A stretch of DNA of 64,000 bases, from NCBI GenBank assembly GCA_964505525.1, contig CAZDIQ010000001.1, positions 5,544 through 69,543 of the forward strand, in the 5' to 3' direction. The notes under the pieces are model-generated. The model saw nothing but the letters and a program-made list of their open reading frames with translations, was not told where the DNA came from and searched no databases. Both the position numbers and the translations under genes were made by a program. Source of the stretch: an uncultured Acidimicrobiaceae bacterium. Its GTDB lineage: Bacteria; Actinomycetota; Acidimicrobiia; Spongiisociales; UBA5794. Positions 3,014 through 61,729 of this stretch are shown one piece after another (the stretch's first letter is position 1; each line of letters starts with the position of its first letter).

Positions 3014-3256
3014 TCAGACGGCATCCGGGAGAGCGTCGTACACGGCCCGCGCTTCCTCCTCGGTCATCAACCCGAGATGCTGCGCCGACGTGATCGTCGC
3101 GTTCGACACGTTGTTCACCACGTCAGCGCCGCCGTCCGTCTCCGGATACTGCGGGGTGTCCCGATACACGAACTGGGCTGCCGCCGCAGCACCAAACTCC
3201 TCCAACGTGAACTCGCCGTCATGCAACCGTTCGAGCAGAGCGAGGAGCTTGTTCAC
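3014..3256 (-). CDS. hypothetical small acidic protein (80 aa); possible immunity/chaperone for adjacent toxin proteins
   Basis: ORF with non-Arg-rich composition, sandwiched between the MazF-like and polyvalent genes and 3 nt upstream of the polyvalent gene. No recognisable motif. Confidence 0.35.
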   Translation of the reverse strand: MNKLLALLERLHDGEFTLEEFGAAAAAQFVYRDTPQYPETDGGADVVNNVSNATITSAQHLGLMTEEEARAVYDALPDAV

Positions 3257-28833: not shown

Positions 28834-30183
28834 TCAGAACACTTCGTCCTGATTGTGCGGCCGGTAGTCGCTCGCCGGGACGCCGCCGTATCGGGCACCG
28901 AACAGCGTCGAGCCGTAACGGAGCGGGTCGTTGCGGTCCTCGACCGACCAAGGCAGCCGTTTGTCGGCACCGCGGATCACAGTCGACGGCAGCCAGATGT
29001 CCGAGTCGCGGGGGACACGGAACTGTTTGACGGTCATCTCGACCCCGGTGCCGCCAGGGACGATCCTGGTCGACGTGTCGTCGTCGGGCGGATGAATCGA
29101 GAAACCGACGTCAGGCCAGTCAACCCATCGTTCGGAGCCTCCCGGCGCGCCGTGGTCACCGCGGGAGAAGTGGGCTTCCAACGCGATCGCGAAGCCGTAC
29201 CGGGCCGACAAGGTATTCAGCGTGGCATGCAACGCGAGGGCGGCTGTCTCATAGTTCTCGCCGGGTTTCATCATCGACATGTACTTGATCGGCCCCATGA
29301 CAAGCACCTGCGGCTGGGACCGTTGGATCGCGGCTTCGAGCGCGGCGAGTCCTTCCGGGGATCGGATGTCGATCCCGCCAGGCCGGTGCAGCAACGCGGG
29401 CCGTCGAAGGTCGAACACGGAGTGCGAGTCGACTGAGCGTTGCAGCCCGAACAGGATGGTCCGAGTCGACGACGTGATATCCCAAGCCCCCGCTTCTAGC
29501 TCGACGATCAAGGCGCGGCGTTCCTGTTCGGTTCGTTGCCCCGTCCACGGGTGCACGCCATTCTCGGCGCAGTACCCGATCTGGCGGAGCAGCGTCGACT
29601 TGCCGATCCCTGCCTTCGCGACGACGAGCAGGCGTTGCCCGCGGCGCAGGAGGCCACGCGCGATCCACGGTTGGACTTCGTCTCGGTCTTCGCCGGAGTC
29701 CAAGGTCGCCATGTCGTCGTAGTAGCCGTGGATGATCGAGTCGGCGTGACGGCGTAACAGTTCTGACTCGGCCAACTGATCCGACACGGTGCGGGCCACG
29801 TCGACGGCTTGTTCTTGTGCGTATCCGGCGTCGGTGAGACGTGCCCCGATGACGATGAGCGCCCGCGACTTCGAATGGTCGAGCACGACCTGCGCGTATC
29901 GGCCGACGTTCGACACCGCTGGCGTTTCGTTCATCAGTTCCGTCAGCCAAACGATCGCGTCGTGCTGGTCCGGGATGCCAGCCGCGACGACAACCTGGTC
30001 CACTCGTTCGCCTGCGGCGGTGAGCGTGGCGATCGCATGGAACGCTGCCTGGTGTTGCGGGGCGTAGAAGTCGGCTGACGTCAACGCTGCTGTCGCTGTC
30101 TCGCAGGCTTCTCGTGCTATCAGGCACGACCCGATGACGGCACGTTCGGCGTTGAGGTCGTGCGGTGGGATGCGGTCAGCCAT
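28834..30183 (-). CDS. dnaB: DnaB-like replicative helicase
   Basis: N-terminal 'IPPHDLNAERAVIGSCLI' (DnaB N domain), Walker A 'VVAKAGIGKST', RecA-fold C-terminal. Confidence 0.65.
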   Translation of the reverse strand: MADRIPPHDLNAERAVIGSCLIAREACETATAALTSADFYAPQHQAAFHAIATLTAAGERVDQVVVAAGIPDQHDAIVWLTELMNETPAVSNVGRYAQVVLDHSKSRALIVIGARLTDAGYAQEQAVDVARTVSDQLAESELLRRHADSIIHGYYDDMATLDSGEDRDEVQPWIARGLLRRGQRLLVVAKAGIGKSTLLRQIGYCAENGVHPWTGQRTEQERRALIVELEAGAWDITSSTRTILFGLQRSVDSHSVFDLRRPALLHRPGGIDIRSPEGLAALEAAIQRSQPQVLVMGPIKYMSMMKPGENYETAALALHATLNTLSARYGFAIALEAHFSRGDHGAPGGSERWVDWPDVGFSIHPPDDDTSTRIVPGGTGVEMTVKQFRVPRDSDIWLPSTVIRGADKRLPWSVEDRNDPLRYGSTLFGARYGGVPASDYRPHNQDEVF

Positions 30184-30709
30184 CCGCGGGAACGAGTTCG
30201 ATCGTCAGCGGGCCGTGCACGATCCGATGCTCGATGCCGACCATCACCGAGATGAACTTCGCGAGGTCGATCGCTTCGAGCCGTCCGTCGAGTTCCAGGT
30301 CGTTCCTGATCCCTGCGATGTCGTCGGCCAGCTGGGAGGCAGCGAGCGCCGGGTCGGACTGGACGATGCGCTTGTATCGCTCCTCCTGCTCGATCAGCAG
30401 GTTGTCCCGGTGGTCGGATTCCATCACCCGGATCAGCAGATCGACTCGCCTCGCTCGGCGTGCCCCCATGTCGGCGGCATGCTCGATGATCGCTGACGGC
30501 AAGATGTCCTGCGGGGACGTGGTCAGCATCATCGCCTTGATCGCGGTCATCACGTCATCGACGATGATCCGGCCGTGCTTCGTCCCGGCGATCAGATGCT
30601 GCCACACCTTGCGTTGCAAGTCCTTGCGGGCCGGGTCCAACCAGCTGGGCCGGTTGAGCATCACAGCGTACGCCTGGACGGACTGGTCGATCACGAGTGT
30701 GTCATTCAT
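30176..30709 (-). CDS. hypothetical protein (177 aa)
   Basis: ORF between initiator and helicase; could be a helicase loader. Confidence 0.35.
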   Translation of the reverse strand: MNDTLVIDQSVQAYAVMLNRPSWLDPARKDLQRKVWQHLIAGTKHGRIIVDDVMTAIKAMMLTTSPQDILPSAIIEHAADMGARRARRVDLLIRVMESDHRDNLLIEQEERYKRIVQSDPALAASQLADDIAGIRNDLELDGRLEAIDLAKFISVMVGIEHRIVHGPLTIELVPADG

Positions 30710-31787
30710 CGTTGGCCTCCGGAAGCTGATGGAAGCTAGAGCTTCGCGCTCGTTCCGACATCACTTGCCGCAATGCCCGAACCTTCGCCACCTGCTCTAC
30801 GGACACGTCAGCGATGATCGCCACGGTCGCATCGTCGCCTCCGCGGGCGATCTGGTTGTCGGCGGTGATGAACCACTTCTCGCCGCGGGCCTGGGCTTTG
30901 TCTCGCACGATCTGCCAGGCCCCGTCGAAGTCGCCGCGGGCGATCGCGGCGTCCATCTCGTCGACCTGGGCCATCTCGATCGCCTTGTCGATCCCGGCCG
31001 CCGTGATCGCCGCGACCTCAACCGAACCAATCTCGTCGGTCCAGCGACGATCGTTCAGCCACGTCGAAGCATGCGGCCGTTTCGAGTGCGGGGTCTTCGC
31101 CTGCTCCCACCAGCGGCCCCGCGCGATGGCCGCGTCGATGATCACCTGCGGGTCCACCTTGTCCTTCATCGCCTTCGCCCACGCGCGCTGAGCCGGAGCC
31201 TTACCATCCTTCGTCCGCGGATAGATCGACCAGAACTCATCAAACCGATCAGCAACTTCAACACGCTCCACCGCAGGTGGAGCAAGCCCCAAGTCCAACG
31301 AAGGAGCCGCGGTGTTGTTCTCCTGATCTTCTTCTGTTGTTCTAGTAGAAGCGGTCACCACATGACCAGGCCCTGGTCGTGCCATGACCGGGGCCTGGTC
31401 ACCACATGACCGGGCTTCGTCGACCCTGGTCACCACATGACCAGGGTCGCCTTCCCATACAGCGTGGTCGAACCAGATGACCCATCGCTTGCCGCCCTCG
31501 CCCTGCGGTATCTGAATCGTCTCTAACTCGATGATGCCCGCAGTGACCAGCGTGGCGACAGCCGCGCTCACCTTGCCCGACGAGATCTTCAATCTGGCGG
31601 CGATGGAGTTCCTGGTGACGTTCTCCTCGTACCCGTCAGCGTGCGACGCGAGCCACACAGCGATACGGAACGCGTACGGATCGAGCGACATGTCCTCGGT
31701 CCGCCAATTGGGGGTGCTCGTCCAGCCTCGACGGCCCTTCGATCGGATAGCACCTGGCGTAGAGGCGGGGCGGATGTTAGAGTTCAT
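30702..31787 (-). CDS. putative replication initiator (winged-HTH) containing iterons
   Basis: N-terminal 'NSIAARLKISSGKVSAAVATLVTAGIIE' wHTH; gene sits upstream of dnaB-like; the coding sequence contains 4-5 GGTCACCACATGACC repeats. Confidence 0.5.
   Translation of the reverse strand: MNSNIRPASTPGAIRSKGRRGWTSTPNWRTEDMSLDPYAFRIAVWLASHADGYEENVTRNSIAARLKISSGKVSAAVATLVTAGIIELETIQIPQGEGGKRWVIWFDHAVWEGDPGHVVTRVDEARSCGDQAPVMARPGPGHVVTASTRTTEEDQENNTAAPSLDLGLAPPAVERVEVADRFDEFWSIYPRTKDGKAPAQRAWAKAMKDKVDPQVIIDAAIARGRWWEQAKTPHSKRPHASTWLNDRRWTDEIGSVEVAAITAAGIDKAIEMAQVDEMDAAIARGDFDGAWQIVRDKAQARGEKWFITADNQIARGGDDATVAIIADVSVEQVAKVRALRQVMSERARSSSFHQLPEANDE
31354..31483. repeat. iteron array: GGTCA-N5-TGACC palindromes at 31354, 31376, 31398, 31429 (+ variant 31467)
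   Basis: Three exact copies of GGTCACCACATGACC, one GGTCGTGCCATGACC, one GGTCGAACCAGATGACC; first three spaced 22 bp. Confidence 0.7.
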
Positions 31788-31867
31788 CTGTTCCTTTCGA
31801 TCTCATCGGGTACGGGTCCTCCCACGCTCATGGATTGGTTGGAGTGCCATGCGGATGGCTTCTGTCA

Positions 31868-31906
31868 GCGAACCCCGGTCGGCCTCGAAGCCCGGCCGGG
31901 GTTCGC
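31868..31906. promoter_or_regulatory. 11-bp perfect inverted repeat GCGAACCCCGG/CCGGGGTTCGC (17-nt spacer) in divergent region
   Basis: Seen directly in sequence between initiator start (31787) and plus-strand small genes (32005). Confidence 0.5.
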
Positions 31907-32004
31907 TCGTTCTCACGAGCTTCCGAGCATCGCGCGAGCCACGACGGGATGCAAGAACAACACACCTGTAGTTCACATGTCGCCATGACAGATACGGTTC
32001 CGAC

Positions 32005-32199
32005 ATGCAGCCACTCGTCGTCGTACCCCACCACGTCGGCATCGGCGAAACCAGCCTCGACGGCAAGAAACTCGGTGTGCTCTGCATCAAAGGCGCCGAC
32101 ATCACCGGCCGCATCTCCATCGACGTCGTCCTCGACATGCCCACACTCGGCCAAGTCGTCGCCGCTCTCGACGAACTACGAATGAGCATGATCGAGTGA
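32005..32199 (+). CDS. hypothetical small protein (64 aa)
   Basis: ORF, first of three plus-strand genes. Confidence 0.35.
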   Translation: MQPLVVVPHHVGIGETSLDGKKLGVLCIKGADITGRISIDVVLDMPTLGQVVAALDELRMSMIE

Positions 32200-32417
32200 T
32201 GTGGTGCATCCACACCAACGACGACGGCCGGTTCCGGTTCGCTACCAGCGGCCCCCTCACCGTCACGTCCGTCGACGCATGGCTCCACGCCGATACCGCC
32301 GCCGCGCAACAATGGCAGGTACCGGACGACAACGACCGCACCGTGCAGTTGAAGTTCATGCACGCAACCGGGCTCACGGCAAACGTCGGAGCAGTCATCA
32401 CACATGAGGGAGCCTGA
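32196..32417 (+). CDS. hypothetical small protein (73 aa)
   Basis: ORF, ATGA-coupled. Confidence 0.35.
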   Translation: MMWCIHTNDDGRFRFATSGPLTVTSVDAWLHADTAAAQQWQVPDDNDRTVQLKFMHATGLTANVGAVITHEGA

Positions 32418-32778
32418 CATGGCAGCATTCCGAACCGGCACCGGCAAGACCGAAGACGCACCGAAGGTGCTCGGCCAACCAGACGGCCGCCCACCGATCT
32501 TCGTCGAAGCGACCGGCAGCTACGAAAGCCTCCGCGTCCGCGACCGGCGCTGGGTCACCGGCAGCGCCGTCCCACGAGGACTCGCGGTCGGTGTGCTCGT
32601 CGAGATCCAAGTCCAAACAGCGAAAGCCAAGCCCGTCGACGTCGACGTCGTGATCACACCAGCCAAGCAGGCCCCCGCCAAGGCCGCAGCGAAGGCACCC
32701 GTCAAGAAGGCTGCGCCGGTCAAGAAGGCGGCAGCGAAGAAGACTCCGGCGAAGAAGGCGGCTCCTCGATCGAAGTGA
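32404..32778 (+). CDS. DNA-binding protein with Ala/Lys/Pro-rich histone H1 / HupB-like C-terminal tail
   Basis: C-terminal 'PAKQAPAKAAAKAPVKKAAPVKKAAAKKTPAKKAAP' repeats. Confidence 0.5.
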   Translation: MREPDMAAFRTGTGKTEDAPKVLGQPDGRPPIFVEATGSYESLRVRDRRWVTGSAVPRGLAVGVLVEIQVQTAKAKPVDVDVVITPAKQAPAKAAAKAPVKKAAPVKKAAAKKTPAKKAAPRSK

Positions 32779-33937
32779 GATAGGACGCCGCGCTGGCCTC
32801 CATCTCGCCGACAGCATTCATCAGTTCGACCCGCGACGGCTGTTCCACCCGCCATACCACCGCGGACGGGACACGCTTCTCAGTCGGCGCGGACGGCATC
32901 ACGTCGTCGAAGATCGGTTCCTCACGCAACGTGACCTCGTACAGCATCGGCCGTTCGTGCCGTGCCGCGTACATGAGAGCGTTCTTCCGGTCCGTCGTGA
33001 TGTACACCATCGTCTTGTCCGACGCGTCGAGGCCAGGCCACACACCAGTCTCTGACGGTGGCAGCAGAATGTCACCGCGCTTCAAGCCGTGGCGACCGCC
33101 ATGCCACCAACGGACCCGCTGCCACCACTCCATCGCGTTCGTGCCGTCGCGGCGTTCCATGAACACGCCCATCGCTTCACGGATCGCCGCCAACGGATCA
33201 GTCCCCGTTGGCACCCGGAGATGCACGCCAGAATGCGCCCATTCGGCCTGTGGGGCCGGTGAGGCGTCGACCGCGTCATCCGGGTCGTGTGAGAGCGGAG
33301 TGAACTCCACGACCTCCACCGGTCGTCCACCGGATACGCCGTTCTGAGCAGCCCAGGCGGTCGCCCACGCCTCACCCGCGGCTTGGCGCATCGCTTCGGC
33401 CTGCCACGGCGACACGATCAGCCGCAACGGTTCGAACGGGTCCGTCGGCTTCGAGAACATCGCGAGCGTCTTCGCGACCTCCTCGACGATGTCGATGTTC
33501 GTCGTGTCGTCGTACACGAACTGGTGCACCCACCAGCCTTCATCCCAGTCATCGTCGACCGGCTGCGAGTAGCGGCGCAGGATCGCCTTGCCCGGCCGTC
33601 GCGGTGGAGGCCCGTACTGGTCAGCGAGACTGCCGACAACAATGTCGCGTTCCGTCTCCGACAGTGCGAGCAGCGCGTCGACCAGCTGCTTCATCAAAGG
33701 TTCGTTCAACGGCGTCCAGTCGTCGCTGCCCGCCTCGGCCCAACTGTTCCACGAGGCCCGTTCCTTCCAACACCATTCGATGTGATGGTCCTCGGTGTTG
33801 TCGTCGTCCACGACGCTGTGCAACGCGCCACCGACCCCGTTGCCGGGCTGGTCATACCACTCGCGGACCAGCATGGCGCAGTCCCACATCGCGTCGGTGA
33901 CGTCGATGTCCATGAACTCCATGTCATCCTCGCTCAT
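32720..33937 (-). CDS. Arr-family (rifampin ADP-ribosyltransferase-like) domain fusion protein
   Basis: C-terminal 'WWHGGRHGLKRGDILLPP...VYITTDRKNALMYAARH...PMLYEVTLREEPIFDDV' aligns with Arr blocks 'FYHGTKANLAIGDLL...IYFSALMEPAVWGA...GYIYIVEPTGPFEDDP'. N-terminal about 270 aa unknown. Confidence 0.55.
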   Translation of the reverse strand: MSEDDMEFMDIDVTDAMWDCAMLVREWYDQPGNGVGGALHSVVDDDNTEDHHIEWCWKERASWNSWAEAGSDDWTPLNEPLMKQLVDALLALSETERDIVVGSLADQYGPPPRRPGKAILRRYSQPVDDDWDEGWWVHQFVYDDTTNIDIVEEVAKTLAMFSKPTDPFEPLRLIVSPWQAEAMRQAAGEAWATAWAAQNGVSGGRPVEVVEFTPLSHDPDDAVDASPAPQAEWAHSGVHLRVPTGTDPLAAIREAMGVFMERRDGTNAMEWWQRVRWWHGGRHGLKRGDILLPPSETGVWPGLDASDKTMVYITTDRKNALMYAARHERPMLYEVTLREEPIFDDVMPSAPTEKRVPSAVVWRVEQPSRVELMNAVGEMEASAASYLTSIEEPPSSPESSSLPPS

Positions 33938-34626
33938 GACAGCACAATGTGAATGTTGCGGCCGCAGCCGTCCGTGCCCGAAGGCGCCCACGTGACACCA
34001 GGCAGATACTCGCCGCCCGGCGCGACCTCACCAGTCTCCGTGTCGACCACAGGCGGCCGCCAGAACTGGCCGGACTCGAACTGGCCGAACGGCTTCCGCC
34101 ACGCAGCACCGGCCGGGATGACCACATGCTCACCGCTGGTCGACACGATCACCTGTTCCAACTCGCCGTCGGCGATCATCCGATCAAGTTTGGCCCGCAG
34201 CTTCTTCACGTCGACCTTCGGTTTCCACGACACGAGATCCGGGTCCAGATCCTCCCAGTAGTTCCCGGCCCGTTCGTCGTCGACGGTCAACACCGGTTTC
34301 GTCTGGTTCGACGAGATCGTCCCGTTCGGGGTACCAATCTTCGTCTTGTCGAAGTCGAGGAACGACCGGACCGCGTACTGTTCGACCGTCGACCGCAACC
34401 AATCCAACCGGCGCCGGGTCGGCCCCACGACTCGTTCCTTCTGCTCCGACAAGCGGGCCAGTTCGTTCTGATGCAGGATCTCGTACTCGGCGATCCGGTT
34501 CGTCAACCGGCGCATCGCCGCCAACATGCGCGACACCGTTTCCAGGTTCGCTTCGGATGCGTCAGGGATGGATGGTTCGGCGTCCGGGTCGTCCCAGTCG
34601 ACGTCGTCGAACAGTTCGTACGTCAT
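33934..34626 (-). CDS. hypothetical protein (230 aa)
   Basis: ORF, ATGA-coupled to Arr-like gene. Confidence 0.4.
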   Translation of the reverse strand: MTYELFDDVDWDDPDAEPSIPDASEANLETVSRMLAAMRRLTNRIAEYEILHQNELARLSEQKERVVGPTRRRLDWLRSTVEQYAVRSFLDFDKTKIGTPNGTISSNQTKPVLTVDDERAGNYWEDLDPDLVSWKPKVDVKKLRAKLDRMIADGELEQVIVSTSGEHVVIPAGAAWRKPFGQFESGQFWRPPVVDTETGEVAPGGEYLPGVTWAPSGTDGCGRNIHIVLS

Positions 34627-34655
34627 CGCCTCATCATGCCCGCGAGGGCGACAAG

Positions 34656-34862
34656 TCAGGCTTCGACAAGATGGATCGTCGCGCCCGGATGCGCCTTCAC
34701 CAACGCAGCCGCGCCAGTCACCGTCGAGAACGAGTCGAGCAGTTCGTCACCCAACCGGACGTCATACTTCGGATGGGCAATCCCTGCGGTCGCCGCCGCC
34801 AACGCCGCCTTCCGAGCAGCGGCCCGCTTAGCACACGTACTGCAATCACTGCCTTTAGCCAT
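34656..34862 (-). CDS. hypothetical small protein (68 aa)
   Basis: ORF. Confidence 0.3.
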   Translation of the reverse strand: MAKGSDCSTCAKRAAARKAALAAATAGIAHPKYDVRLGDELLDSFSTVTGAAALVKAHPGATIHLVEA

Positions 34863-34924
34863 CGCCGCGAGGATACCGCGGAGGCCGTCGACGCATCGTG
34901 ATCGTCACAGACCACAGACCGGCT

Positions 34925-35323
34925 TCACTCGACCGGCCACGCGTGCGACCCCGGATGATCCTTGATCGACGCCGCCGCCTCAGAGATCGTGTCGAACGTG
35001 CCCCACACCGTCCCCGACGTGTCGTCACGGACCTGATAACGGGCAGGGACTTCCACCTGCACACTCGACCACATCACCAGACGACCCCCAGCGACAGCGC
35101 GAGCCTCCGCCACCGTGTCGAACATGACGTCGAGCCCGGCCACCGAGTACGCCGACCGGTTGACCGTCACCGTAGTCGGCAGTTTCCGTTTCCGCTTGGC
35201 ACAGTCCGCGCACTCCACGACGTTGACCGTACCCGACAACCCGTCAGTCCTGTCGTTCGTAACGAACGACCAGACCTCCAGACATGCCCTGCACCAGAGT
35301 TGGAGAGGAGTTGGCGCCATGCG
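34925..35323 (-). CDS. hypothetical Cys-motif protein (start uncertain)
   Basis: 'VECADCAKRKRK' region real-looking; upstream part overlaps tail gene so start may be a GTG/TTG near 35225-35237. Confidence 0.25.
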   Translation of the reverse strand, partial: RMAPTPLQLWCRACLEVWSFVTNDRTDGLSGTVNVVECADCAKRKRKLPTTVTVNRSAYSVAGLDVMFDTVAEARAVAGGRLVMWSSVQVEVPARYQVRDDTSGTVWGTFDTISEAAASIKDHPGSHAWPVE

Positions 35324-36623
35324 CCCCATACCCCAGACCACGCGGCTCCGAGAACGCGCCGATCGTTGCCCCCGATCCGCGCCCAGCACCACCACCGCAG
35401 TGATACACAACGGCCCCGGACCAGTGCCATGCCGATGGATACCCGTCCCCCCCTGCGCCTGGAGTCGTCCCGGTATTATCGCCACCGTCGCTCAATGCCC
35501 CGCCGCCGCCACCACCGGCCTGGCTGGCGGTGCCAGTGCCACCCAAATGGTAGTAGGGGCCGCTGGAAGCATTGGGGGCAACATTGCCGCCGTTGACACT
35601 TGCCGAGAACGACGTGAAGTTCGGGGTGAACCCATCGGCGGTGTACCCCTCGAACGAGTTCCGCTTGTTCACGATGGAGGCCACACCGACTCCCTTCACG
35701 AGAGACGTGGTGCTGGTGGGTGCTGGGTGTCCGAACACGGGAATGATCTCTCCGGCCCCGCCGCCGCCACCACGGTTCACGTTGGTGCCGCCCCGCGACT
35801 GCTCACCGCCGCCGATCAGGAGAAAGTCAATCGTGGCTGGAAGGGCGGCCCCCGAGATCGGGTTCATGTGCGCGGTGAAGTTCGCCTTGTCGGCGTTGGT
35901 GTTGCCGGTGTTGATCCAGTGGTAGCAATAGTCGGAGTCGTACCATGTGCGAATCCCGGCAGATTGACTCGTGAACACGTACGAGAACGGGTTGTAAGCG
36001 GGCGCAGCGAAGTACGCATCCCAGTAGGCGAACGTGGCCGGATCGGGCTCCCCTCGGGCGAAGACGAACCCGACAAGACCCGCCTCTGGTGGGCTGTCCG
36101 GGGCAGCGAAGGTGCTTGTGAGCCCGAACTGCACATTCACTCCGTTCGCGTTCGGTACCAACGCGCACGAATTGACCCCTCCCGTCCTGGTGGGACTGAC
36201 AGGAGTGTCGTCGACCCATATGGTCGATCCGCCATCGACTGGGTCGTAGGTTGCGACCCACGAGTCCCAGTTCGTGCCCGAGATGACGTTACTGATGACC
36301 GAGCCGCCCGCCTGGAAGTTGATCCCGACGTTCGACGCTGCGAGGAACCCGATCCGCGACGATGTGCCGGTGTTGACGTCAGGCCACCCCAGCGCCGCTC
36401 GCTGTAGCGTGGCCCCGTTGGCCTTCCTGAACGCCATCACAGTGAACGGGCCGTCGCATGGTGGACCTCCGAAGTGGTTGGTCCAGTTCCCGACGATGTT
36501 CCCCAAGGCGACCACCGAGTTCAGGGTGTCGTTGTTGCCTGAGATGATCAGATCGAAGTCCGACCCAGCGATTCCTTGATTCTCAATGACCTGATCGTCG
36601 GTCATCCCGTTCCAACTGCGCAT
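35244..36623 (-). CDS. Gly-rich minor tail protein
   Basis: Poly-Gly tracts 'GGGGGAGE', 'GGGGGGALSDGGDNTGTTPGAGGDGY' typical of actinophage minor tail proteins; N-terminal 124 aa of track ORF are Arg-rich and excluded. Confidence 0.5.
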   Translation of the reverse strand: MRSWNGMTDDQVIENQGIAGSDFDLIISGNNDTLNSVVALGNIVGNWTNHFGGPPCDGPFTVMAFRKANGATLQRAALGWPDVNTGTSSRIGFLAASNVGINFQAGGSVISNVISGTNWDSWVATYDPVDGGSTIWVDDTPVSPTRTGGVNSCALVPNANGVNVQFGLTSTFAAPDSPPEAGLVGFVFARGEPDPATFAYWDAYFAAPAYNPFSYVFTSQSAGIRTWYDSDYCYHWINTGNTNADKANFTAHMNPISGAALPATIDFLLIGGGEQSRGGTNVNRGGGGGAGEIIPVFGHPAPTSTTSLVKGVGVASIVNKRNSFEGYTADGFTPNFTSFSASVNGGNVAPNASSGPYYHLGGTGTASQAGGGGGGALSDGGDNTGTTPGAGGDGYPSAWHWSGAVVYHCGGGAGRGSGATIGAFSEPRGLGYGAHGANSSPTLVQGMSGGLVVRYERQD

Positions 36624-36703
36624 GTCCCAGACGATCAGAGCGTCGCGGAGCGGTTCGATCGGATGCACAACCAGAGGGTCGCCAGCGTTGAAGCGTTGCC
36701 GTC

Positions 36704-37114
36704 TCACGCCAAGCCGATCCACATTCCGCGTGACGCGCCGCCCCCGAAACTGGCGACATCCAGCGACACCAACGCGCCCGGCGGGACGGAGACAGACAGC
36801 GCGCCGCCCCCGTTGCCGCTGATCGACAGCGTCTGCGCGGTCACACCGTTGACTCGAACGTTCACCGACAATGCCGACGTGTTGACGATCAGCGATGCAT
36901 ACCAGATCGACAGGCTCGTCCCAGCGAACGACAGGATGCCCGGCGACTCGTCGGTGTAGTTGATCAGCCCCGGCCACGAAAACTGGAACGGCCACTCCGA
37001 CCCGCCGCCACCGCCGCCACCGGCCTGTTGACGAATACGACGATCGGCCCTGTTCGGTGCCGGATCGAACAGAGGCTCCGACGCCGGAGAGAACCGCGAC
37101 GACCGGCCGCTCAC
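36704..37114 (-). CDS. Gly-rich minor tail protein (136 aa)
   Basis: 'QQAGGGGGGGSEW', ATGA-coupled to upstream tail gene. Confidence 0.4.
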   Translation of the reverse strand: MSGRSSRFSPASEPLFDPAPNRADRRIRQQAGGGGGGGSEWPFQFSWPGLINYTDESPGILSFAGTSLSIWYASLIVNTSALSVNVRVNGVTAQTLSISGNGGGALSVSVPPGALVSLDVASFGGGASRGMWIGLA

Positions 37115-39036
37115 TCCGTCACCCCCAACGCCTTCGAGAACGCCATCTGCGAGTTCCGGTACTTCGTGTCACCCACAAGCCCTTGCCCGATGCCCTTCAA
37201 CAATTCGAACTGCTCACGCTGCTGCAAATTGATCCGGGCGTTCAACTCCAACGTGATGTCCGCCCGACCCATGTCGGTCTGGACGACCGTGATCGCATGC
37301 ACCTGATACTGGGTCAGGACACCAGTCGGACCGGGACACCCAACCTGATTCCCGACCGAGTACGCGTCGTACGGTGAGTCCGCTTCGCCGAGCGGGTCGA
37401 TCGCGACCACGACCGCATACTTCGGGTTGGCGTTCTCCTCCAACATCACTCCCGCCTGGGACAATGCGTCGTTCAACGTCGGAGCGTCGACGGTCATGAA
37501 CCCCTCGTACTGACCCCACAACGCCTGCGACGCCACATCCTCAATCTCGAAGTAGCCGGACGTCCACTTCACCAGATACCTGTTCCGAGGCTGCACCTGC
37601 GGCACGAACGACAACGACCGGATCGTCTGCGTGTCGACGTCATGCGTGACCTGATAATCGATACCGGAGGGCGTAGCGATCGACCCCTGCACGAACATCT
37701 GCAACAACTTCGTGCCCGGCCTGACCCGCCAATCCACCCACCCTTGATCGACCAGACCGCCAAGCAGATCGAGGACACTGTTCCCGATCGCGATCGAGTA
37801 GCCAGGCAGATACTCCCACGGGTTGCCGAGCGAATCGTTCCAGTCGGTGAAGTCGGTAGCGAACCCGGACAACGCACCGCGGGCCTGTACCTCGCCGATC
37901 GCGTCAAGCATGATCTGGCCCGGCGTCCATCCCGGATCAGGCACCGGATACGGCAACGCGATCCACGACCCGTCGGTGACAACGATGTTCTCAACCGGGT
38001 CAGCGTGATCGTCCAGCCGGGCGACTGCGCACATGAACCCGCCAGGGTTGTAGAACTCCGGAGGCCATTCCGAGTTCACTACCAACGCCGCCAACGTGTA
38101 CGTCCCTGCGGGCAACGTCATGTCGACCCGCTTGTATTCCTGCCAGCAGTGCATGTTGACCAGTTCACCGAGGATCGGCGTGCCGTCGAGGTACAGCGTG
38201 TAGTAGTTGTCGCCGGTGACGAAGATGCCGACGTTCGTTTCGCTGGTCAAGGTGAACACCCGTCGGAAGTAGTTCTTGCCGGGCGGCTGCAAGTCGTCCT
38301 GCCCCCAGATCCAGTAGGCGTCCGGGATCGGCCAGCCGATCGGTGCAGGCACCGGAACGATCTCGACGACGTCCTCCTCACCGTCAAGTTCGGTCGTGTA
38401 TTCCAGGAACGAGAACCGGCCAGGGTCGATCACGTTCGCCTTGTATCCGACAGTGGCCGGGACCCAACCGCCGAGGTTGGGGTAGTCCGGCGACGCGAAC
38501 GTGTACAGCCGATGCTGCGCGTTGACTGGATTCTCCAACCCCTTCGGCGGGTAGACGATCGCCTCGTCTAGCAGGGTGGCCCGGCCCTGCCCGGCCGCCG
38601 TAATCCGCTCACCGGCTTCCTCGCTTTCCGTCAACGCCACAATCTGTGGAGGTTGAAGGATCTCCCAGGTGAACACGACGTCACCGAACATGTAGCAGCG
38701 AACCTCACGGCCGGGGACCAGCTGCGCGGCGTCTGGATCGTCACGTTGGATCGTGAGCCGCCCTGAGCCGACGTCGTTCAACGTGTCCTGGAACTGCACC
38801 CCCGTCTGGGTCGACAACGTCGAGATGAACGTCCCTGACGCGGACCACAGTTCGGCGTACATCGACGGCACGAACGGGTCAGGATCAGGGTCGGCGTTAC
38901 GGACCGAGATACCAGCCACCGGGGTAGCCCCGTCGAACGAGGCCAAGTCGAGAATGTTCGTCTGTGGTGGCCCGACCGCAATCGGGCCGACGACCGCGGT
39001 TTCACCGTCGAATGACGCCAGATCAAGCTCGACCAT
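37111..39036 (-). CDS. minor tail protein (641 aa)
   Basis: Large ORF downstream of tape measure. Confidence 0.5.
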   Translation of the reverse strand: MVELDLASFDGETAVVGPIAVGPPQTNILDLASFDGATPVAGISVRNADPDPDPFVPSMYAELWSASGTFISTLSTQTGVQFQDTLNDVGSGRLTIQRDDPDAAQLVPGREVRCYMFGDVVFTWEILQPPQIVALTESEEAGERITAAGQGRATLLDEAIVYPPKGLENPVNAQHRLYTFASPDYPNLGGWVPATVGYKANVIDPGRFSFLEYTTELDGEEDVVEIVPVPAPIGWPIPDAYWIWGQDDLQPPGKNYFRRVFTLTSETNVGIFVTGDNYYTLYLDGTPILGELVNMHCWQEYKRVDMTLPAGTYTLAALVVNSEWPPEFYNPGGFMCAVARLDDHADPVENIVVTDGSWIALPYPVPDPGWTPGQIMLDAIGEVQARGALSGFATDFTDWNDSLGNPWEYLPGYSIAIGNSVLDLLGGLVDQGWVDWRVRPGTKLLQMFVQGSIATPSGIDYQVTHDVDTQTIRSLSFVPQVQPRNRYLVKWTSGYFEIEDVASQALWGQYEGFMTVDAPTLNDALSQAGVMLEENANPKYAVVVAIDPLGEADSPYDAYSVGNQVGCPGPTGVLTQYQVHAITVVQTDMGRADITLELNARINLQQREQFELLKGIGQGLVGDTKYRNSQMAFSKALGVTE

Positions 39037-39048
39037 GCCAGCCTTCGT

Positions 39049-39459
39049 TTACAGTCGGAACATCTTCGTCGTGCCGTTCGACCAGCGGACGATCACATCC
39101 CCACCGTCCGTTTCGACGTCGATCATCGCCGCCGACGCGAGCGTGTCGTAGAAGATCACCACCCGCGACGTCGCCGCGGAACCGGTCCACTGATAGACGA
39201 TGATCGACCGGATGTCATCACCTGCGCCGACCGCGGTGAACGTGACGTCGTTCGCGTCGCACACACCGTGCACGTTCGTCTTGCCGGACAGGTTGGCCGA
39301 GGCGACGATGACGCTGCCCGACACATCGTCGTAGAACTCGTCGGCGGCGTCGTAGCTGTAGGTGTCGTCCATGAGGGCGCACCGCCAGTCGCTGCCGGTG
39401 AAGTCCAGGTCGCCGTCGGCGAACGCCTGCCGCGACAGCGGGTACATCTGGTTGGACAT
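39049..39459 (-). CDS. minor tail protein (136 aa)
   Basis: Position after TMP. Confidence 0.4.
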   Translation of the reverse strand: MSNQMYPLSRQAFADGDLDFTGSDWRCALMDDTYSYDAADEFYDDVSGSVIVASANLSGKTNVHGVCDANDVTFTAVGAGDDIRSIIVYQWTGSAATSRVVIFYDTLASAAMIDVETDGGDVIVRWSNGTTKMFRL

Positions 39460-39495
39460 GGCCGCAGCCTATGCGATCGGCCGACGAGGGCCGGG

Positions 39496-39996
39496 TTACG
39501 AGCCGACGAGCACGAACCGGCCAGCCGGAACGGTCAACGTCACCCGATACACGGCGTAGCCGGGGTCCTCGACTGGGTTCACAGCACGAGGCAACGTGAA
39601 CTTGACGTCGGCCTTCATCTTCGTGGCCCCGTCCGGCAACGTCAACGTCGCCGGGATCGTGCCACGCCCCGTCGTGACCGGCCCGAAAGCGCCCGAGATG
39701 AGGGTCTGCAAGTTGGCCCACAATCCCATCCACGCGTCGTCGTGTGCCACCCCGTTCTGGTCGGCGTACCCATTCACGAACAAAGTCAACTCGTAGTCCG
39801 ATTCGTCATACCGCGACGGATACGACCGTTGACCGGCCGCGGTCGGCAACAGCACCGAGTCCGCCCGGATCGCATGCTCAACCCACAAGGCTTGCAGGTC
39901 AGTGATGTCCCAGGCCGGGCAGTTCAACGGGAAGTCGTCATCGCCGACGTCGAGCGCGCCGAGGCACCCGTACTCGTTCTCACACCACCCGGCCAT
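39496..39996 (-). CDS. minor tail protein (166 aa)
   Basis: Start overlaps TMP stop. Confidence 0.4.
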   Translation of the reverse strand: MAGWCENEYGCLGALDVGDDDFPLNCPAWDITDLQALWVEHAIRADSVLLPTAAGQRSYPSRYDESDYELTLFVNGYADQNGVAHDDAWMGLWANLQTLISGAFGPVTTGRGTIPATLTLPDGATKMKADVKFTLPRAVNPVEDPGYAVYRVTLTVPAGRFVLVGS

Positions 39997-42900
39997 CAGA
40001 ACTCCTCATCCCAGTCGATCCTGCCCGCGCCCAGGTCGGACAGCTGCGACACGATACGCGTCGCCGTCTTATGTGCGTTCTTCGCTTCGTTCACCGTGAT
40101 CTGCTCGACGTTCACCGACCGGTCCATCGAACGCGATACCGCCTGACGTGCCGCCGCCGACGGCACCAAAGGACGTCCCCCACGGGAACCGTGCGCGACG
40201 TCAGCGGACACCGGGTCCCTACGAGACAAGGCCAGCCCGAACATTTCGGCCACCTGCGACAGCACCTTCTCAGATTGGCGACGCTTCCGCACCCCCAACG
40301 GGATGTACGCCTCGCCACCGGTTTCCGGCTCGGCAAAGACCCGCCACGCCCCGGCCGGTGCCATGTGGGCCGTATGGTTCTCGCGGACCCCACCGTTCCG
40401 GAAGAACAGGAGGCCACCGTCAGCGAACGGGATGCCACCACCGTTTGCCGAGACACGCTGGTTCCGTCCCGCGCTCTCAACTTGCAACGCTTCAAGGATC
40501 TGCCGGTCCCGTTCGGAGATGACGACGTTCACGTTCACCGGCACTTCGATCCCCGCGGCAGCCGCGATGTTCGCGGCTGTGATCGCCGCCTCAACAGCTT
40601 CCTGCATCTTCGTCGACAGCAGGTCCGGTTGGATCAGATTGTCGACCAGCTGCTGCGCGATCGCCGGGTCGAGCCCACCAGCCGTCAACTGGTTCGTCAA
40701 GTCCTGCGACGCCGACGCCAGGAACAGCTGGGCGGCGGTCGCGCCTTGCGTCTCGAAGATGCCCTGAGCCTGAGACAGAATCCCGTTGATCGTCGGCGCG
40801 AGCGTGTCCTGGAACAGCTGCTTCGATTCTTCGGTCGGCGCGGCCAGGATGAACTGGTACAGGCCGATCCCGGCCTCAGCGGCCTGCTGCTTCACGATGT
40901 CGAGCAGCCCGCCAGGGTTCGACAAGTCGATGCCACCGAGCCGGGCTTCCAACTCGTCCAGTTCCCGCAACGCGTCATCAAGGTTGCGTTGAGCCTTCTC
41001 AGCGTCCTGGAACACGAGCGCCCGTTCACGTTCAAGCGCCGCCGCGCCGACCGTCGCGCCAGCGGCACGGGCCGCTTCGATCCGGGCGTCGAGAATGTCG
41101 GCTTCGGTCTGGGCGTCGGCCTGTTCGCGGGCGACGTCCGCGCGTAGATCGGCGATCGTGTCGCGCTGATCGTTGATATCTTCGATCAGCCGCTTGGCTT
41201 CCTCCTGAGCCTTCTTGAATCCGTCGGAGTCGACCAACCCGAGCAACGCCGATGAGATCCCAGCGATGTCCGTCTCGATGTTCTGGCGGGCGACGGTGAG
41301 CGACAGGTTCTTGTCGAGCCCGGAGAACGCTGTCGACACCAACTTCGTCGCGGCCTCAACCCCCTTCAACGCCTCCTCGTATGCCTCCTCCAAGTCTTTG
41401 ACGCTCTTGGCTTCGTCGTCGAGCAGCTGCTGCCGTTCCTTCGCGACCCCGGCCATGTACCGCTGGTTCGCCGCGTAGGCGTCGGCCATCGTCTTGTAGG
41501 ACTTACCGGTCTGGTCGGCGTCAAACTCGGCGCGGGTTCGCAGGGAGTCGAGCACAGGGGAAACGACCCGGTCAATCTCATCAAGTCGTCCAGCGATACG
41601 GGCGACGTCCTCGACGTTGACGATGCGGTTGGCCAACCCTCCCTCGTAGACGTACAACGAGTCGAGGAACGCTGCAATGTCGGCGTCGGTGCCTGCCAGA
41701 AGCTCCTTCAACTCGTCACGATTGATCCGCACCCCGTTCGGCAGCCCGGACAGCAGTTCCTCCATGAAGTCGGTGTCCAGCTGCTGGGACAGGAACTCGT
41801 CGAACGACTCGGTGTCAATGACGTCCTCGGCGGTCAGCTTCTGGGCTTCGGTGATACCGAAGGCTTCACCGAACTCGGTGCGGATCGTGTCGGCGAGCGT
41901 TTCGACGGTCGCCTGGAACTCCTCGGCTTCACGCTTCCCGGCTTGCAGCTGACCGACGATCGCACCGATCGCGGTCGCCCCGACAGCCAACCCCAGCCCG
42001 ATCGGTCCACCGGCCGCGAACCCTGCGGCGGCCGACCCGACCGCCGACACGAACGACGTCACCTTCCCTGCGGTGTCATCGGCGGCGAACCCGATCCCGG
42101 AGATGGCCCCGACGATCGCGGCCGACCCGACGACCGCGGCCGACGAGAACTTCTTGACCGCACCACCAGCGGTATCCATCGACGTCGTCGTCGTCTCCAC
42201 AGCGGCGCCTGCTTCGCTCGCGGCCTTCGCCGTGCCAGGCAGCACCGCCGAGAACCGGGAGAACGACGCCGTGATCGACGTGATCGTCCCAGCGACCCCT
42301 TGTGCGGCCTTGAACGCGACGAAGGCAGTCACCATCGAGGTCAGTACAGGGACTGGGATGATCTCCAAGACGTCGGCGAGAGCGGTGAGCCCCGGCACCA
42401 GAATTGACGCCAACGTCGTACCGGTCTGGGCGACGGCGGGGCCAAGCTCAGCGATGATCCGACCGATCTCTGGCAGCACCCGCCCCATCAACGGCAACAG
42501 TTGAGTGATAACCGGCACGACCCCTTCGAGGGCTGAGCCGAGCCCCGTGAACAATCCTTCGAACGCTGGCGCGAGAGCGAGGCCGAGGTCGTCGACCAAC
42601 GGAAGGATCTGGGGGATGAGCCCCTCGAACGACCGGGCCAGGGCAGGCCCGATGGCCTTCAACGCAATGTCGACCTGACCCTCCAACGGGCCGAGAGCGT
42701 CCGCGACCAAGGTCGACACACCAGAAAACGCGGAGATCAGGTTCAGCTGGATCGTGTCACCGAACGCGGACAGCTTGCCTTGCAAGGTTTCAGCAGCCGC
42801 TTCGATCGACCCGGCGACACCAGGGAACTCCTGCATCCGTTCGAGCAGAATGTCGACGGCGTCTTCCCCGGTGATCGCCCCGTCCTTGATCTTCTCCTGA

Positions 42901-58531: not shown

Positions 58532-61500
58532 TCATTCCGGGAACCCAGGGAAGCCGTCCGCCACCCGCAACGGCCCGTAGTAATCGAACCACACGGTCTG
58601 ACCGTTGATATAGGCACCGTTCAGCACCTGGGTGACCCCCTCGTGCTCGAATGACGCGGACAGGGACTCGCGGTCGCTGATGTTCAGGTAACACATCCCC
58701 ACCAAATAATCTTCGATGCCTTCGTCGTACAGTTCGGCCGGGATCGGGATGACATCAACGAACGTCTGATACTTGTAAGGCCGTCGCTGACCGTTGGCGT
58801 ACACGACACCCGAGGTCGACATACCGCCAAACGGCTGATCCAGCAAGTTGAGGAAGTTGAAAATCGACGATTCCTTGATCACATCGACCACAACAGGCGA
58901 TTCCGGATCGGACAGGTCGATCGAGGCGATGCTGGAGCCGACGTCTTCGCAGCGCACCACGGCCCAGCCCGGCCCATCAATCATCACGTACGAGTTATCG
59001 TTCAAGCTGATCGTGACGTTCTCGGTTGCGGCCACGAACGGGGCGGTGGGGTCGGACACGTCGATCAACAGCAGGATGCCGTCATCGTTGGAGTCCGCGC
59101 CACAAGCGATGTAGATGTGGCCGTCCATGACGTGCATGCGGGAGAGGTCGCCATCCGCGAGCGGCACGGTGGTGAGCGACCCGATAATCGACATGTCGGC
59201 CGGGTCCGAGACGTCGACAACGAACAACACTCCACCGTCTTCGGCAAGGTTCGAGTCGACGACCCACAGGTATGCGAGCCCCGCGTGGAGGCCGAACGCG
59301 ACCGACTTGATCACCGCGTAGAAGCCCGTCGCAGCATCCATGTCGATCTCCGACAGAACGATCCCGTCGGCGTCGTATGCGGACAGCATGGACGCGTAGT
59401 CGTTGTCTGTGTCCCAACGTTGGATGAACGCGACCTGCTCGGTCGCCGCGAGCAGCAGCCCGTCGGATGGTCCCGCCCCGATAGAGAACGTGACCTCCGT
59501 GATCGGGTCATCGTCCGGCAGCAACTGGGTGAAGCTGACCGTAACGGGATCGCCCCACTCAGCGGTGATCACCTTGCCGCCAGGCGTGATACCCAACCAC
59601 CGCCAGTCCTCCGGCATGTCCCACGACCCGACCTTGAACCCGGAGCCGCCCCCCACTTCGACGGGGATCGGCGCGGACCATTCCGACTTGCCTCCGGCGT
59701 TCACCGACCGAATCCGGTAGGCGTACGAACCGGGCGGAACTTCTGCTGACGAGAAGATCGGCCCCCACCAGATCGGTCCACCCGGTGCAGGCACATACGT
59801 CCCGCCACCCGTCGACACTTCAACCTCGTACCAGACGGCACCCGGCACCGGAGGCCATTCGATCGTGACTGTCGACCCGTCGACATCGACCACAGCTTCG
59901 GACTCGTCGACCGGGATCGGCGCGATCCAACCGTCCACCTGCGCTGCTTCCATCAACGAACCGATCTGTTCCTCTGTGAGCACACCCGTGAAGATGGCGA
60001 AGAAAGCGTGACCGCCCGCCACCGAGTTGTTCAGGGAGTACGACGAGGCGAGCCACAGATCCGCCGTGTCGTTGGGGACGGTACCCGTAGCTCCGGAGAA
60101 GTCGGTCTTGCCGAGCGGCGTGTTCGAGTTCTTGTACTGCTCAATCGTGGCGGCGTCGGTGTTGCCGTCCATCGTGACGCAGAATGCCTGCCACGCGTTC
60201 AAGCCAACTGCGGCAGTGGGCGCCGTCGCGCGCCGCAGGATGCCGCCGTTCGCGATCATGAGTTCGCTGATCAGCTGGCCGGTCGGATTGAGTCGAACAG
60301 CGAACTCGTTGCGTTGGTTGGGCGCCACACCCTTGCCCCAGAACCGCTTGTCGTCGAGCGTGATCGGCCGTGACAGCCAGAACAGGGTGATGCCCGAAGA
60401 TCCCGGCGTCCAGGCGTCGGCATCCGGGATGACGACGGCCGACGAGATCATTTGCACAAACCGATCGGAGATCGGCCCCTGCACCGCCCGGTAGGTCACC
60501 CCCCCGGCCGTGGTGCTGTGTCGGGCGTTGCCGGAGGAGTCCTGCATTTGCCCTGAGGCGTCGTTCAGCTTCCAGAACCCGGTCGGCGTCAACGCCAGGA
60601 TGGCGGCGCTCAACGCGGGTGAGAACACGTCGACCTGCGGTTCGTCGTCGACGTCCAAGACGGTGTAGTCGATGTTCTCGGTCGCGTCGACGTCGATCAC
60701 ATCCAACAGTTCCACGACAGCCGTATCGTCCACCGCGAGCACGTCGTACGGAACCTCATCGTCCACGTCGAAGTCGATCTCCGGTGGAATGACCAACTCG
60801 AACGTGCAGATGCCACGGAGGCTGTTGGAGGAAGGGCCGAACTGCATCGTCCGTATCGGCGCGGCCCCACCATCCGGATCTTCTTCCCACGCAATCAGGG
60901 TTCCGTAGCCATCCGACAGTGAGTTCTGCTTCAACAGTTCGGTCGCCACGTCGAAGCTCGTGAACGTCAAGGTGTTGTATCCGTGCGCGAAGTACATGAC
61001 GGTGCTCGGCGCACGCTGCAACGCCAACGCAGGGGATGACGCAAGGTTGACGTTCGCGCGCCGCGCGTCAACCGCCGCACCCAACTGTGCCGGAGAAGTG
61101 CGAATGCACACCGCTCCGGACGAGGCTGTGGTTCCCGACGCGATCGGGACCGGTCCCGTCTCGTCGCCGACCGCGCTGGGCAGATGGCTGATCGTCATGA
61201 CGTAACCCGAGCCGTACGACGTCTGCGTGAACACATCCGTGAACCCGACATAGGTCGGCAACGAGAACCCCCATTGAAGAACCCACAGCGACTCGCCGGG
61301 CTGGATTCCGTCCGGGTAGGAAAGCGTCCGGGGGGACGCCGGTCCGGATGTCGTGACGTCGTAGATGATCGGCGGATTCGGGAGCGTCTCAGCACAGACC
61401 GGGGCCGACCACGGCGACATGCTCTCCGGGCCGATGGCTCGGACCCGATAGCAGTATTCGGTGCCTTCGTCGAGGCCCGTCTCCTCGAACGACGTGCCCA

Positions 61501-61729
61501 CGAACGGTGACCCGGCCACAGCGTTCCAGGAGCCACCGTCGATCGACACCTGGACCGCGTAGCCGGTCGCGTCGTCGACCGCGTCCCAGGAGACGAATAT
61601 CTTGTCGTCGTCCTCGGCTATGACGGTCAGCCCGGCCGGTGTCGGGAACGGCGGCCCACTGGTGACCCCGGTGCCTTGTGACCCTTCACGGAGCCCGGTG
61701 CCGTTCGACCCCGCCCGTACGCCGGTCAC
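58532..61729 (-). CDS. large fibre-like protein with FN3, LamG/ConA-like and LVIVD beta-propeller repeats
   Basis: FN3 ('TGYAVQVSIDGGSWNA...EYCYRVRAIG', 'VWYEVEVSTGGGTYV...YAYRIRSVNAGGKSEWSAP'), LamG-like ('ITLFWLSRP...NEFAVRLNPTGQL'), LVIVD-like repeats ('LFVVDVSDP','LLLIDVSDP','SIASIDLSDP'). Confidence 0.55.
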   Translation of the reverse strand: MTGVRAGSNGTGLREGSQGTGVTSGPPFPTPAGLTVIAEDDDKIFVSWDAVDDATGYAVQVSIDGGSWNAVAGSPFVGTSFEETGLDEGTEYCYRVRAIGPESMSPWSAPVCAETLPNPPIIYDVTTSGPASPRTLSYPDGIQPGESLWVLQWGFSLPTYVGFTDVFTQTSYGSGYVMTISHLPSAVGDETGPVPIASGTTASSGAVCIRTSPAQLGAAVDARRANVNLASSPALALQRAPSTVMYFAHGYNTLTFTSFDVATELLKQNSLSDGYGTLIAWEEDPDGGAAPIRTMQFGPSSNSLRGICTFELVIPPEIDFDVDDEVPYDVLAVDDTAVVELLDVIDVDATENIDYTVLDVDDEPQVDVFSPALSAAILALTPTGFWKLNDASGQMQDSSGNARHSTTAGGVTYRAVQGPISDRFVQMISSAVVIPDADAWTPGSSGITLFWLSRPITLDDKRFWGKGVAPNQRNEFAVRLNPTGQLISELMIANGGILRRATAPTAAVGLNAWQAFCVTMDGNTDAATIEQYKNSNTPLGKTDFSGATGTVPNDTADLWLASSYSLNNSVAGGHAFFAIFTGVLTEEQIGSLMEAAQVDGWIAPIPVDESEAVVDVDGSTVTIEWPPVPGAVWYEVEVSTGGGTYVPAPGGPIWWGPIFSSAEVPPGSYAYRIRSVNAGGKSEWSAPIPVEVGGGSGFKVGSWDMPEDWRWLGITPGGKVITAEWGDPVTVSFTQLLPDDDPITEVTFSIGAGPSDGLLLAATEQVAFIQRWDTDNDYASMLSAYDADGIVLSEIDMDAATGFYAVIKSVAFGLHAGLAYLWVVDSNLAEDGGVLFVVDVSDPADMSIIGSLTTVPLADGDLSRMHVMDGHIYIACGADSNDDGILLLIDVSDPTAPFVAATENVTISLNDNSYVMIDGPGWAVVRCEDVGSSIASIDLSDPESPVVVDVIKESSIFNFLNLLDQPFGGMSTSGVVYANGQRRPYKYQTFVDVIPIPAELYDEGIEDYLVGMCYLNISDRESLSASFEHEGVTQVLNGAYINGQTVWFDYYGPLRVADGFPGFPE

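Follow-up and report, generated by a model that had tools for sequence, protein, structure and literature searches.

The 64,000-nucleotide (nt) stretch of contig CAZDIQ010000001.1 analysed here, referred to as the window, contains a predicted replication-initiator gene in the middle of which the palindrome GGTCA-N5-TGACC is repeated, raising the question of what a set of palindromic sites is doing inside the gene for a putative DNA-binding protein. On the evidence of sequence, the four palindromes together with the A/T-rich tract that follows them are proposed to form a replication origin located inside its own initiator gene in an uncultured phage, with a probability of roughly 0.8. This interpretation is drawn from the match of the encoded protein to the phrog_270 family, an operon shared with a helicase, conservation of the array at the DNA level, its placement in the sequence coding for a protein linker, the A/T-rich flank and the co-variation of the sites with the predicted recognition helix. 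The elements concerned are as follows (aa, amino acids):

30702..31787, minus strand: replication-initiator gene, 361 aa, with its ATG at 31787.
31428..31442, no strand: site 1 in gene order, GGTCACCACATGACC, aa 116-120, read G-H-V-V-T.
31397..31411, no strand: site 2, GGTCACCACATGACC, in the +1 frame, read R-S-C-G-D-Q, aa 126-131.
31375..31389, no strand: site 3, GGTCGTGCCATGACC, in the +2 frame, read P-V-M-A-R-P, aa 133-138.
31353..31367, no strand: site 4, GGTCACCACATGACC, read G-H-V-V-T, aa 141-145, adjoining the A/T-rich tract.
31311..31352, no strand: A/T-rich tract, candidate DNA-unwinding element, purine-rich on the coding strand and directly after site 4.

Pattern searches recovered three identical copies and one variant, with the first three copies from the low-coordinate end 22 base pairs (bp) apart, as had been described in the initial annotation; all of the sites listed there are present, each 1 nt lower than was given. 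Start-to-start spacings counted from 31353 upward are 22, 22 and 31 bp, such that sites 3 and 4 and sites 2 and 3 are each separated by 22 bp and sites 1 and 2 by 31 bp, or approximately three helical turns. Each unit is itself an inverted repeat, and the centres of the two half-sites within one site are 10 bp, a single helical turn, apart. Site 3 is a hybrid of a GGTCG and a TGACC half-site, and site 1 extends to a longer palindrome (31421-31449) with arms of 12 nt. A repeat finder reported four 21-nt units (CCTGGTCACCACATGACCRGG) across 31350-31445, with palindromic arms of up to 9-12 bp, and Tandem Repeats Finder independently reported a 22-nt period over 31353-31415. The exact 15-mer GGTCACCACATGACC is absent from the 64 kb outside the array, the nearest other matches carrying three mismatches, and a scan of the same 64 kb for perfect 5-Nx-5 palindromes with spacers of 0-9 identified this as the only locus at which at least three share an arm. 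Given the uniqueness of the 15-mer, the single palindrome cluster and the independently reported 22-nt period, the array is not a chance feature, and it is almost certainly a functional cis-acting DNA element, situated some 350 nt into the transcribed initiator gene. A fifth, variant copy that had been counted with the array (GGTCGAACCAGATGACC, 31466-31482) does not belong to it. It starts 38 nt past the site at 31428, its spacer differs and it does not keep the helical phase of the other copies. The codons of a conserved strand, W-V-I-W-F-D, account for its sequence. Only 2 of 17 homologues have it, and matches to its pattern, GGTC-N9-GACC, number nine in the window.

The frames in which the sites are translated bear on whether the DNA or the peptide is under selection. 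On the coding strand, copies 1 and 4 read GGT CAT GTG GTG ACC (G-H-V-V-T), copy 2 reads CGG TCA TGT GGT GAC CAG (R-S-C-G-D-Q) and copy 3 reads CC GGT CAT GGC ACG ACC A (P-V-M-A-R-P). The peptide repeat PGHVVT ascribed to the array is therefore encoded by two copies, the other two giving RSCGDQ and PVMARP. The 22-nt spacing is not a multiple of three, and in a homologue set of 19 distinct loci (32-54% amino-acid identity), assembled from protein searches and locus retrieval, copies fall into frames 0, 1 and 2 in the numbers 34/20/13, with the last copy in the G-H-V-V-T frame in all 19 arrays. Judged by nine other genes in the window, the codons imposed by the sites are minority choices (GGT 22%, CAT 31%, TCA 10%), and those of which the A/T-rich tract is made are rare in the same genes (AGA 1 of 413 Arg codons, or 0.2%; ACT 7%; ACA 6%; TCT 5%). 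One DNA word recurring in three frames at a 22-nt period therefore points to selection on the DNA and not on a peptide repeat, and the locus illustrates how a disordered linker can accommodate a cis element that is translated in three frames.

The A/T-rich tract directly follows the sites in the direction of transcription. The 40 nt at 31311-31350 have a GC content of 0.40, the second-lowest of any 40-mer in the 64 kb (mean 0.643, standard deviation 0.062), and the interval 31201-31350, at 0.52, is the joint-lowest 150-mer. A motif within the tract (...CTA.AGG...TAGAAGAACAG) is kept in the homologues, in which the 45 nt past the last copy have a GC content of 0.38-0.58, against a window-wide 0.64 that is the value for this DNA and not for the hosts of the homologues; in most of them these 45 nt are also purine-rich on the coding strand (0.53-0.82). 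Tandem Repeats Finder additionally reported an 11-nt-period repeat within the tract (TGTTGTTCTCC, 2.8 copies, 31313-31343), and AGAACAACA occurs twice in the tract on the coding strand with a spacing of 22 nt. The 11-nt-period repeat may represent a motif of the unwinding element that is specific to one strand. Within the window, GC content is lowest in a patch at 58680-59000 (GC 0.375-0.48 in windows of 40-100 nt); it was rejected as a competing origin, being located inside a 1065-aa open reading frame (ORF; 58532..61729, minus strand) and lacking repeat structure.

Palindromes of the 5-N5-5 type are present in every homologue that has the region (all 19 loci), with four copies in 11 loci, three in seven and, under a strict filter, two in one. 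The winged helix ends in a conserved FDxxxWE motif, and the arrays begin approximately 25-45 nt beyond this motif. Of 48 spacings between copies, 42 measure 21-24 bp, among them 24 of 22 bp, and three measure 31-32 bp, the latter indicating that insertions keep the helical phase at approximately two or three turns. Within the group of loci with GGTCA half-sites, pairwise identity with gaps counted is 0.61 for the linker DNA, despite differences in copy number, compared with 0.62 for the DNA coding for the winged helix and 0.33 for the next 150 nt. Relatives of the initiator gene were detectable at the protein level only, with no nucleotide match at blastn sensitivity among 50,697 phage records, and a scan covering 185,579 species of bacteria and archaea, with one genome for each, gave no relatives and so no hint of a prophage or host.

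The array is located inside the coding region of a winged-helix protein, as had been proposed. By sequence, the initiator is a member of phrog_270, the 'RepA-like' initiators of actinophages: it matches this family ("replication initiation protein") with E 8.7e-28 over aa 13-263, and its C-terminal half matches further initiator, primosomal and DnaD-like PHROGs. Pfam gave winged-helix matches below threshold only (aa 35-95), and a sequence search of the PDB together with Foldseek returned only generic MarR-like winged-helix matches. The public gene call (P0001, 329 aa) begins at M33, 32 codons short. Residues 14-32, upstream of M33, are kept in all homologues (I14, R19-G21, P26-R29; R19-N27), and therefore the ATG at 31787, which is preceded by an AAGGA ribosome-binding site, is taken to be the true start. 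An AlphaFold2 model of moderate confidence, built on 17 sequences (mean predicted local distance difference test score, pLDDT, 66), predicts a winged helix at aa 14-112 (31452-31748; pLDDT 74-87), a disordered linker of 60 residues at aa 116-176 (31260-31442; pLDDT <35) and a helical C-terminal domain at aa 172-346 (30750-31274). The array (aa 116-145) and the tract (aa 146-160) are wholly contained in the sequence coding for the low-confidence linker. The element of the winged helix that would contact the sites is:

31539..31580, minus strand: predicted recognition helix of the winged helix, aa 70-83, SGKVSAAVATLVTA.

To relate this helix to the DNA, homologous loci (designated L002 to L024) were grouped by half-site as follows:

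Half-site GGTCA/TGACC: window, L002, L004, L005, L010, L012-14 and L022; helix xGKV(S/T).
Half-site GGTCG/CGACC: L006, L007, L009 and L017; helices GERVSKS, ASTVSKA, GDKVSKS and GTKVSSA.
Half-site GGACG/CGTCC: L008/L018 and L023; helices SRARVSSS and SRTKTSES.
Half-site GGTAG/CTACC: L024; helix PSRVTKS.

Two further loci, L020 and L021, contain mixed GGTCA...CGACC sites together with the same helix as L017, from which it follows that position 5 of the half-site is partly tolerant. The co-variation of half-site and recognition helix fits what would be expected if the winged helix of the encoded protein reads the sites, and the array is very probably bound by the product of its own gene.

Downstream of the linker, at least two unrelated types of C-terminal half occur among the initiators. 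The first type is followed by a DnaB-type helicase (in the window and in L006, 962-2698) and the second by a DnaC-like AAA+ protein (in L005, 3791-4412). As the same N-terminal domain and sites occur with unrelated C-terminal types, the N-terminal domain and the sites behave as one module, which points to modular exchange between the parts for origin recognition and those for helicase recruitment. Whether the winged helix and the in-gene array also travel together as an exchangeable specificity cassette is a more tentative matter, for which the odds are judged to be slightly less than even. A more distant initiator, P0017 of locus L027, has only the C-terminal domain in common with these proteins and carries seven TCACTGAGT-type repeats inside its gene (3050-3363), arranged in pairs and triplets with a spacing of 11 bp and located partly in the linker; its downstream partner is a primase-helicase (3834-5624). 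In-gene arrays of sites appear to be common among initiators with this C-terminal domain.

The initiator is encoded together with two further genes:

30176..30709, minus strand: 177-aa ORF between the initiator and the helicase, its ends overlapping both (30702-30709 and 30176-30183).
28834..30183, minus strand: DnaB-like replicative helicase, 449 aa, with Pfam matches to the DnaB N-terminal domain (E 4e-21) and AAA_25 (E 4e-16), and assigned to phrog_19.

The three genes form a same-strand operon with overlapping stop and start codons, in the order initiator, 177-aa ORF and helicase, so that the helicase is not immediately adjacent to the initiator gene as had been supposed. The 177-aa ORF has no Pfam or PHROG family. 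It also adjoins the initiator in L004 (37% identity, E 6e-20). Its product could possibly be a helicase adaptor or loader. With a terminase gene approximately 5 kb from the array and a source contig 100,320 bp in length, the element is either the genome of a phage or a large contig of phage-like character, with a GC content of 0.64.

A mechanism can be proposed in which each GGTCA-N5-TGACC site would be occupied by an initiator dimer, with contact made by the recognition helix (aa 70-83). The spacing of 22/22/31 bp, approximately two, two and three turns, would place all of the dimers on one face of the DNA, where they could assemble a bent complex resembling the 'O-some' of phage lambda. This complex would open the neighbouring A/T-rich tract at 31311-31352, and the helical C-terminal domain would then recruit the DnaB-like helicase of the phage, whose gene is the second one downstream; the 177-aa protein might assist in this. 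Binding, bending, melting, recruitment of the helicase and initiation at the array are in this sense what we infer from the arrangement of the locus.

The organization of the locus was compared with known replication systems. In lambda O, DNA binding is the task of the N-terminal part, and a link to helicase loading is provided by the C-terminal part. The lambda origin lies midway along the initiator gene and consists of four or six dyad-symmetric binding repeats followed by an A/T-rich tract (PMC7466680), and the parallel with lambda O that had been noted for the window holds, the layout being the same. In both, the sites are inside the initiator gene and the repeats supply residues of the protein linker, and the polarity is shared, with repeats followed by the A/T-rich tract in the direction of transcription. 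As among the origins of lambdoid and Stx phages, the type of repeat changes with the initiator between relatives. The window locus differs from lambda in that its sites are 5-N5-5 palindromes with a 22-bp spacing in DNA of 64% GC and in an actinophage-like context, and in that a DnaB-type helicase is encoded by the phage, whereas lambda hijacks that of the host through its P protein. Features of a lambda-type intragenic origin found here thus comprise at least three dyad sites between domain segments, an A/T-rich flank and co-variation of sites and protein, the last in few lineages.

The same layout is seen in the RepA_N initiator of plasmid pSK41, with four Rep boxes located centrally in rep, an N-terminal winged helix, a dispensable middle section and a helical DnaD-like C-terminal domain (PMC5703833). 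RepA_N, however, belongs to a plasmid and has the host DnaG as its partner, in contrast to a phage with its own DnaB-like helicase, and the similarity in fold is at the generic winged-helix level only, given a model with the mean pLDDT stated above. Iteron plasmids of the Rep_3 type have direct, non-palindromic iterons that are bound by monomers, whereas the units in the window are inverted repeats and therefore imply binding by a dimer, as for lambda O. By analogy, the design of the locus is that of the lambda O/ori and RepA_N type, and its architecture is textbook and not new. Mycobacteriophage repA replicons (Miko, Rachaly and Jeeves) have been described with no repeats identified and the origin placed 'within or adjacent to repA' (Wetzel et al. 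2020, PMC7157519); that RepA belongs to another protein family (pMSC262-type plasmid RepA) and serves extrachromosomal prophage maintenance together with parABS. In a literature search this was the only text that joined actinobacteriophage, origin and iteron, and no paper was found on repeats or an origin of phrog_270 or Cafasso-type initiators.

Among cultured phages, gp47 of Gordonia phage Cafasso ('RepA-like replication initiator') is homologous to the window initiator over both domains (BLASTP E 6e-16, 28% identity, aa 22-252). Cafasso (MZ322021) has its gene trio in the same order of initiator, small ORF and DnaB-like helicase; no similarity was detectable between the window 177-aa ORF and Cafasso gp48. 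The linker of Cafasso gp47 is encoded by DNA (L026:4253-4307) with four palindromic 10-mers (CCAGGTCCGG, CCAGATCCGG, CCGGATCCGG and CCGGATCAGG) at a spacing of 15 bp. These repeats, of the form CCRGATCCGG in 10-bp units, are unrelated in sequence to the window sites. An A/T-rich stretch comes after the four palindromes in gene 47 (L026 4253-4370). The record over 32363-41013 contains coding-sequence features only, with no origin annotated, and the palindromes and A/T-rich tract of gene 47 are likely to be the origin.

To our knowledge, no origin of this kind has so far been defined for high-GC actinobacterial phages. The window would provide a candidate origin of approximately 130 bp (31311-31445) with its cognate initiator for an uncultured high-GC phage lineage with contigs of approximately 100 kb and, by homology, a candidate origin for cultured Gordonia phages such as Cafasso. 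The series of half-sites and helices could guide the design of compatible replicons for Actinobacteria. If the winged helix and array do form an exchangeable cassette, a readable helix-to-DNA recognition code might be obtained from the family, along with natural orthogonal origin and initiator pairs for high-GC actinobacterial phages and vectors.

Several observations weigh against an intragenic origin or limit the strength with which it can be proposed. Binding by the protein and firing of the origin are proposed from computational analysis, and the survey of candidate origins covered the 64-kb window of a genome of approximately 100 kb. GC skew over the 64 kb follows gene orientation with no clean switch at 31.4 kb, and fine-scale GC skew is likewise dominated by orientation and is not decisive; the GC-skew check that had been suggested therefore neither supports nor contradicts an origin at the array. 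The link between helix and half-site amounts to approximately 4-5 lineages, counted without phylogenetic correction, and one helix type, SGTKVSSA, is found with GGTCG sites as well as with mixed GGTCA/CGACC sites. Hairpins, too, would be expected to show symmetric changes in the two arms of a site. At the level of protein families, no match was found to Phage_rep_O (PF04492), whether with the window protein (E <= 0.1) or with 10 homologues (E <= 1), nor was there a sequence match to RepA_N (PF06970) or a match to Rep_3 (PF01051), and the AlphaFold2 model shows a single winged helix and not a WH1-WH2 arrangement. The 'O-like' phrog_678 reached E 0.0057 against the initiator, with no stretch passing. 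All of the computational tests that could be run are in agreement with an intragenic origin marked by an array of initiator-binding sites, and the earlier designation of the array as a likely origin is supported accordingly. Host DnaA boxes (TTGTCCACA, <=1 mismatch) are not present near the array. Across the window, a single actinobacterial DnaA-box-like 9-mer was found at this tolerance, compared with 11.75 +/- 3.3 expected from shuffled sequences, a marked under-representation that possibly reflects avoidance of binding by host DnaA.

Of the other explanations, the one that survives best is that the sites, bound by the initiator or by another regulator, serve solely as operators for autoregulation or for a transcription block of the initiator-helicase operon, with replication starting elsewhere. 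In iteron plasmids, Rep dimers repress their own gene by binding palindromic operators, the array is positioned within a transcribed gene, and GC skew provides no independent support for an origin here. However, no copy of the site is present in the promoter region (31788-32004) or elsewhere in the window, and the phased array is always joined to the A/T-rich rare-codon tract, which an operator would not need and which is characteristic of unwinding elements. Systems already known to have the same layout are, moreover, origins (PMC7466680, PMC5703833), and a role as operators only is considered unlikely.

A second possibility is that the palindromes are not sites for protein binding to duplex DNA but form hairpins in RNA or single-stranded DNA, which might, for instance, pause translation, affect the stability of the mRNA or signal primosome assembly. 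The coding strand does fold better than shuffled controls (z = -5.9), and pairing is kept as both arms change between lineages, from GGTCA/TGACC to GGTCG/CGACC, GGACG/CGTCC and GGTAG/CTACC; the commonest imperfect copy, GGTCA...CGACC, retains a G-T wobble on the non-coding strand. A requirement for pairing alone would not account for an arm sequence that is near-invariant within a lineage, both across copies and between homologues of approximately 45% identity, nor for the phasing of 21-24 or 31-32 bp or the co-variation of the half-site with a DNA-recognition helix. Some copies (in L006 and L013) contain mismatches that are not wobbles, and no Rfam family reached threshold, a permissive run giving sub-threshold chance matches only. 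Hairpins are accordingly regarded as quite improbable.

The array could alternatively be another type of cis site that happens to be located in a gene, such as a parS-like partition centromere or a pac packaging site, since centromeres and pac sites of phages and plasmids can be arrays of short repeats inside genes. In mycobacteriophages, parS arrays adjoin repA (PMC7157519). Against this, the array accompanies the initiator gene in 19 lineages and co-varies with the initiator helix, the terminase gene is 5 kb away and lacks such repeats, and inspection of the ORF lists and gene tables of the loci, used in place of a dedicated search, brought no ParA/ParB-like genes near the array to notice; such a site is marginally less probable still than hairpins. 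The last explanation, that selection acts on the protein to keep PGHVVT as a peptide repeat or low-complexity linker and that the DNA itself has no role, is ruled out by the frame analysis and retains next to no probability: the window protein does contain PGHVVT twice, and homologues have it too, but consecutive copies 22 nt apart occupy three frames, the segment is predicted to be disordered, lineages with other half-sites encode unrelated peptides there (QDATRPP, PGRVTT and VATRP) and the codon choice is atypical for the genome.

Further features were observed in the vicinity of the initiator gene. Scans of 30500-32500 for sigma-70 promoters and intrinsic terminators gave nothing. A strong hairpin (AGCGAACCCCGG ... 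CCGGGGTTCGCT) occupies 31867-31907 in the intergenic region between the divergent genes, at a distance of 80-120 nt upstream from where the initiator starts, with a predicted RNA fold of -41.9 kcal/mol (z = -4.3) and no run of T after it; an inverted repeat occurs in a similar position upstream of the L002 homologue (9871-9912). This hairpin may be a 5'-leader or regulatory structure. Three small genes are divergent from the initiator, and the product of one of these (32404-32778, plus strand) has a C-terminal tail rich in lysine, alanine and proline (PAKQAPAKAAAKAPVKKAAPVKKAAAKKTPAKKAAP) that resembles the tails of histone H1 or of actinobacterial HU/Lsr2-type proteins, and could be a DNA-coating protein encoded beside the origin.

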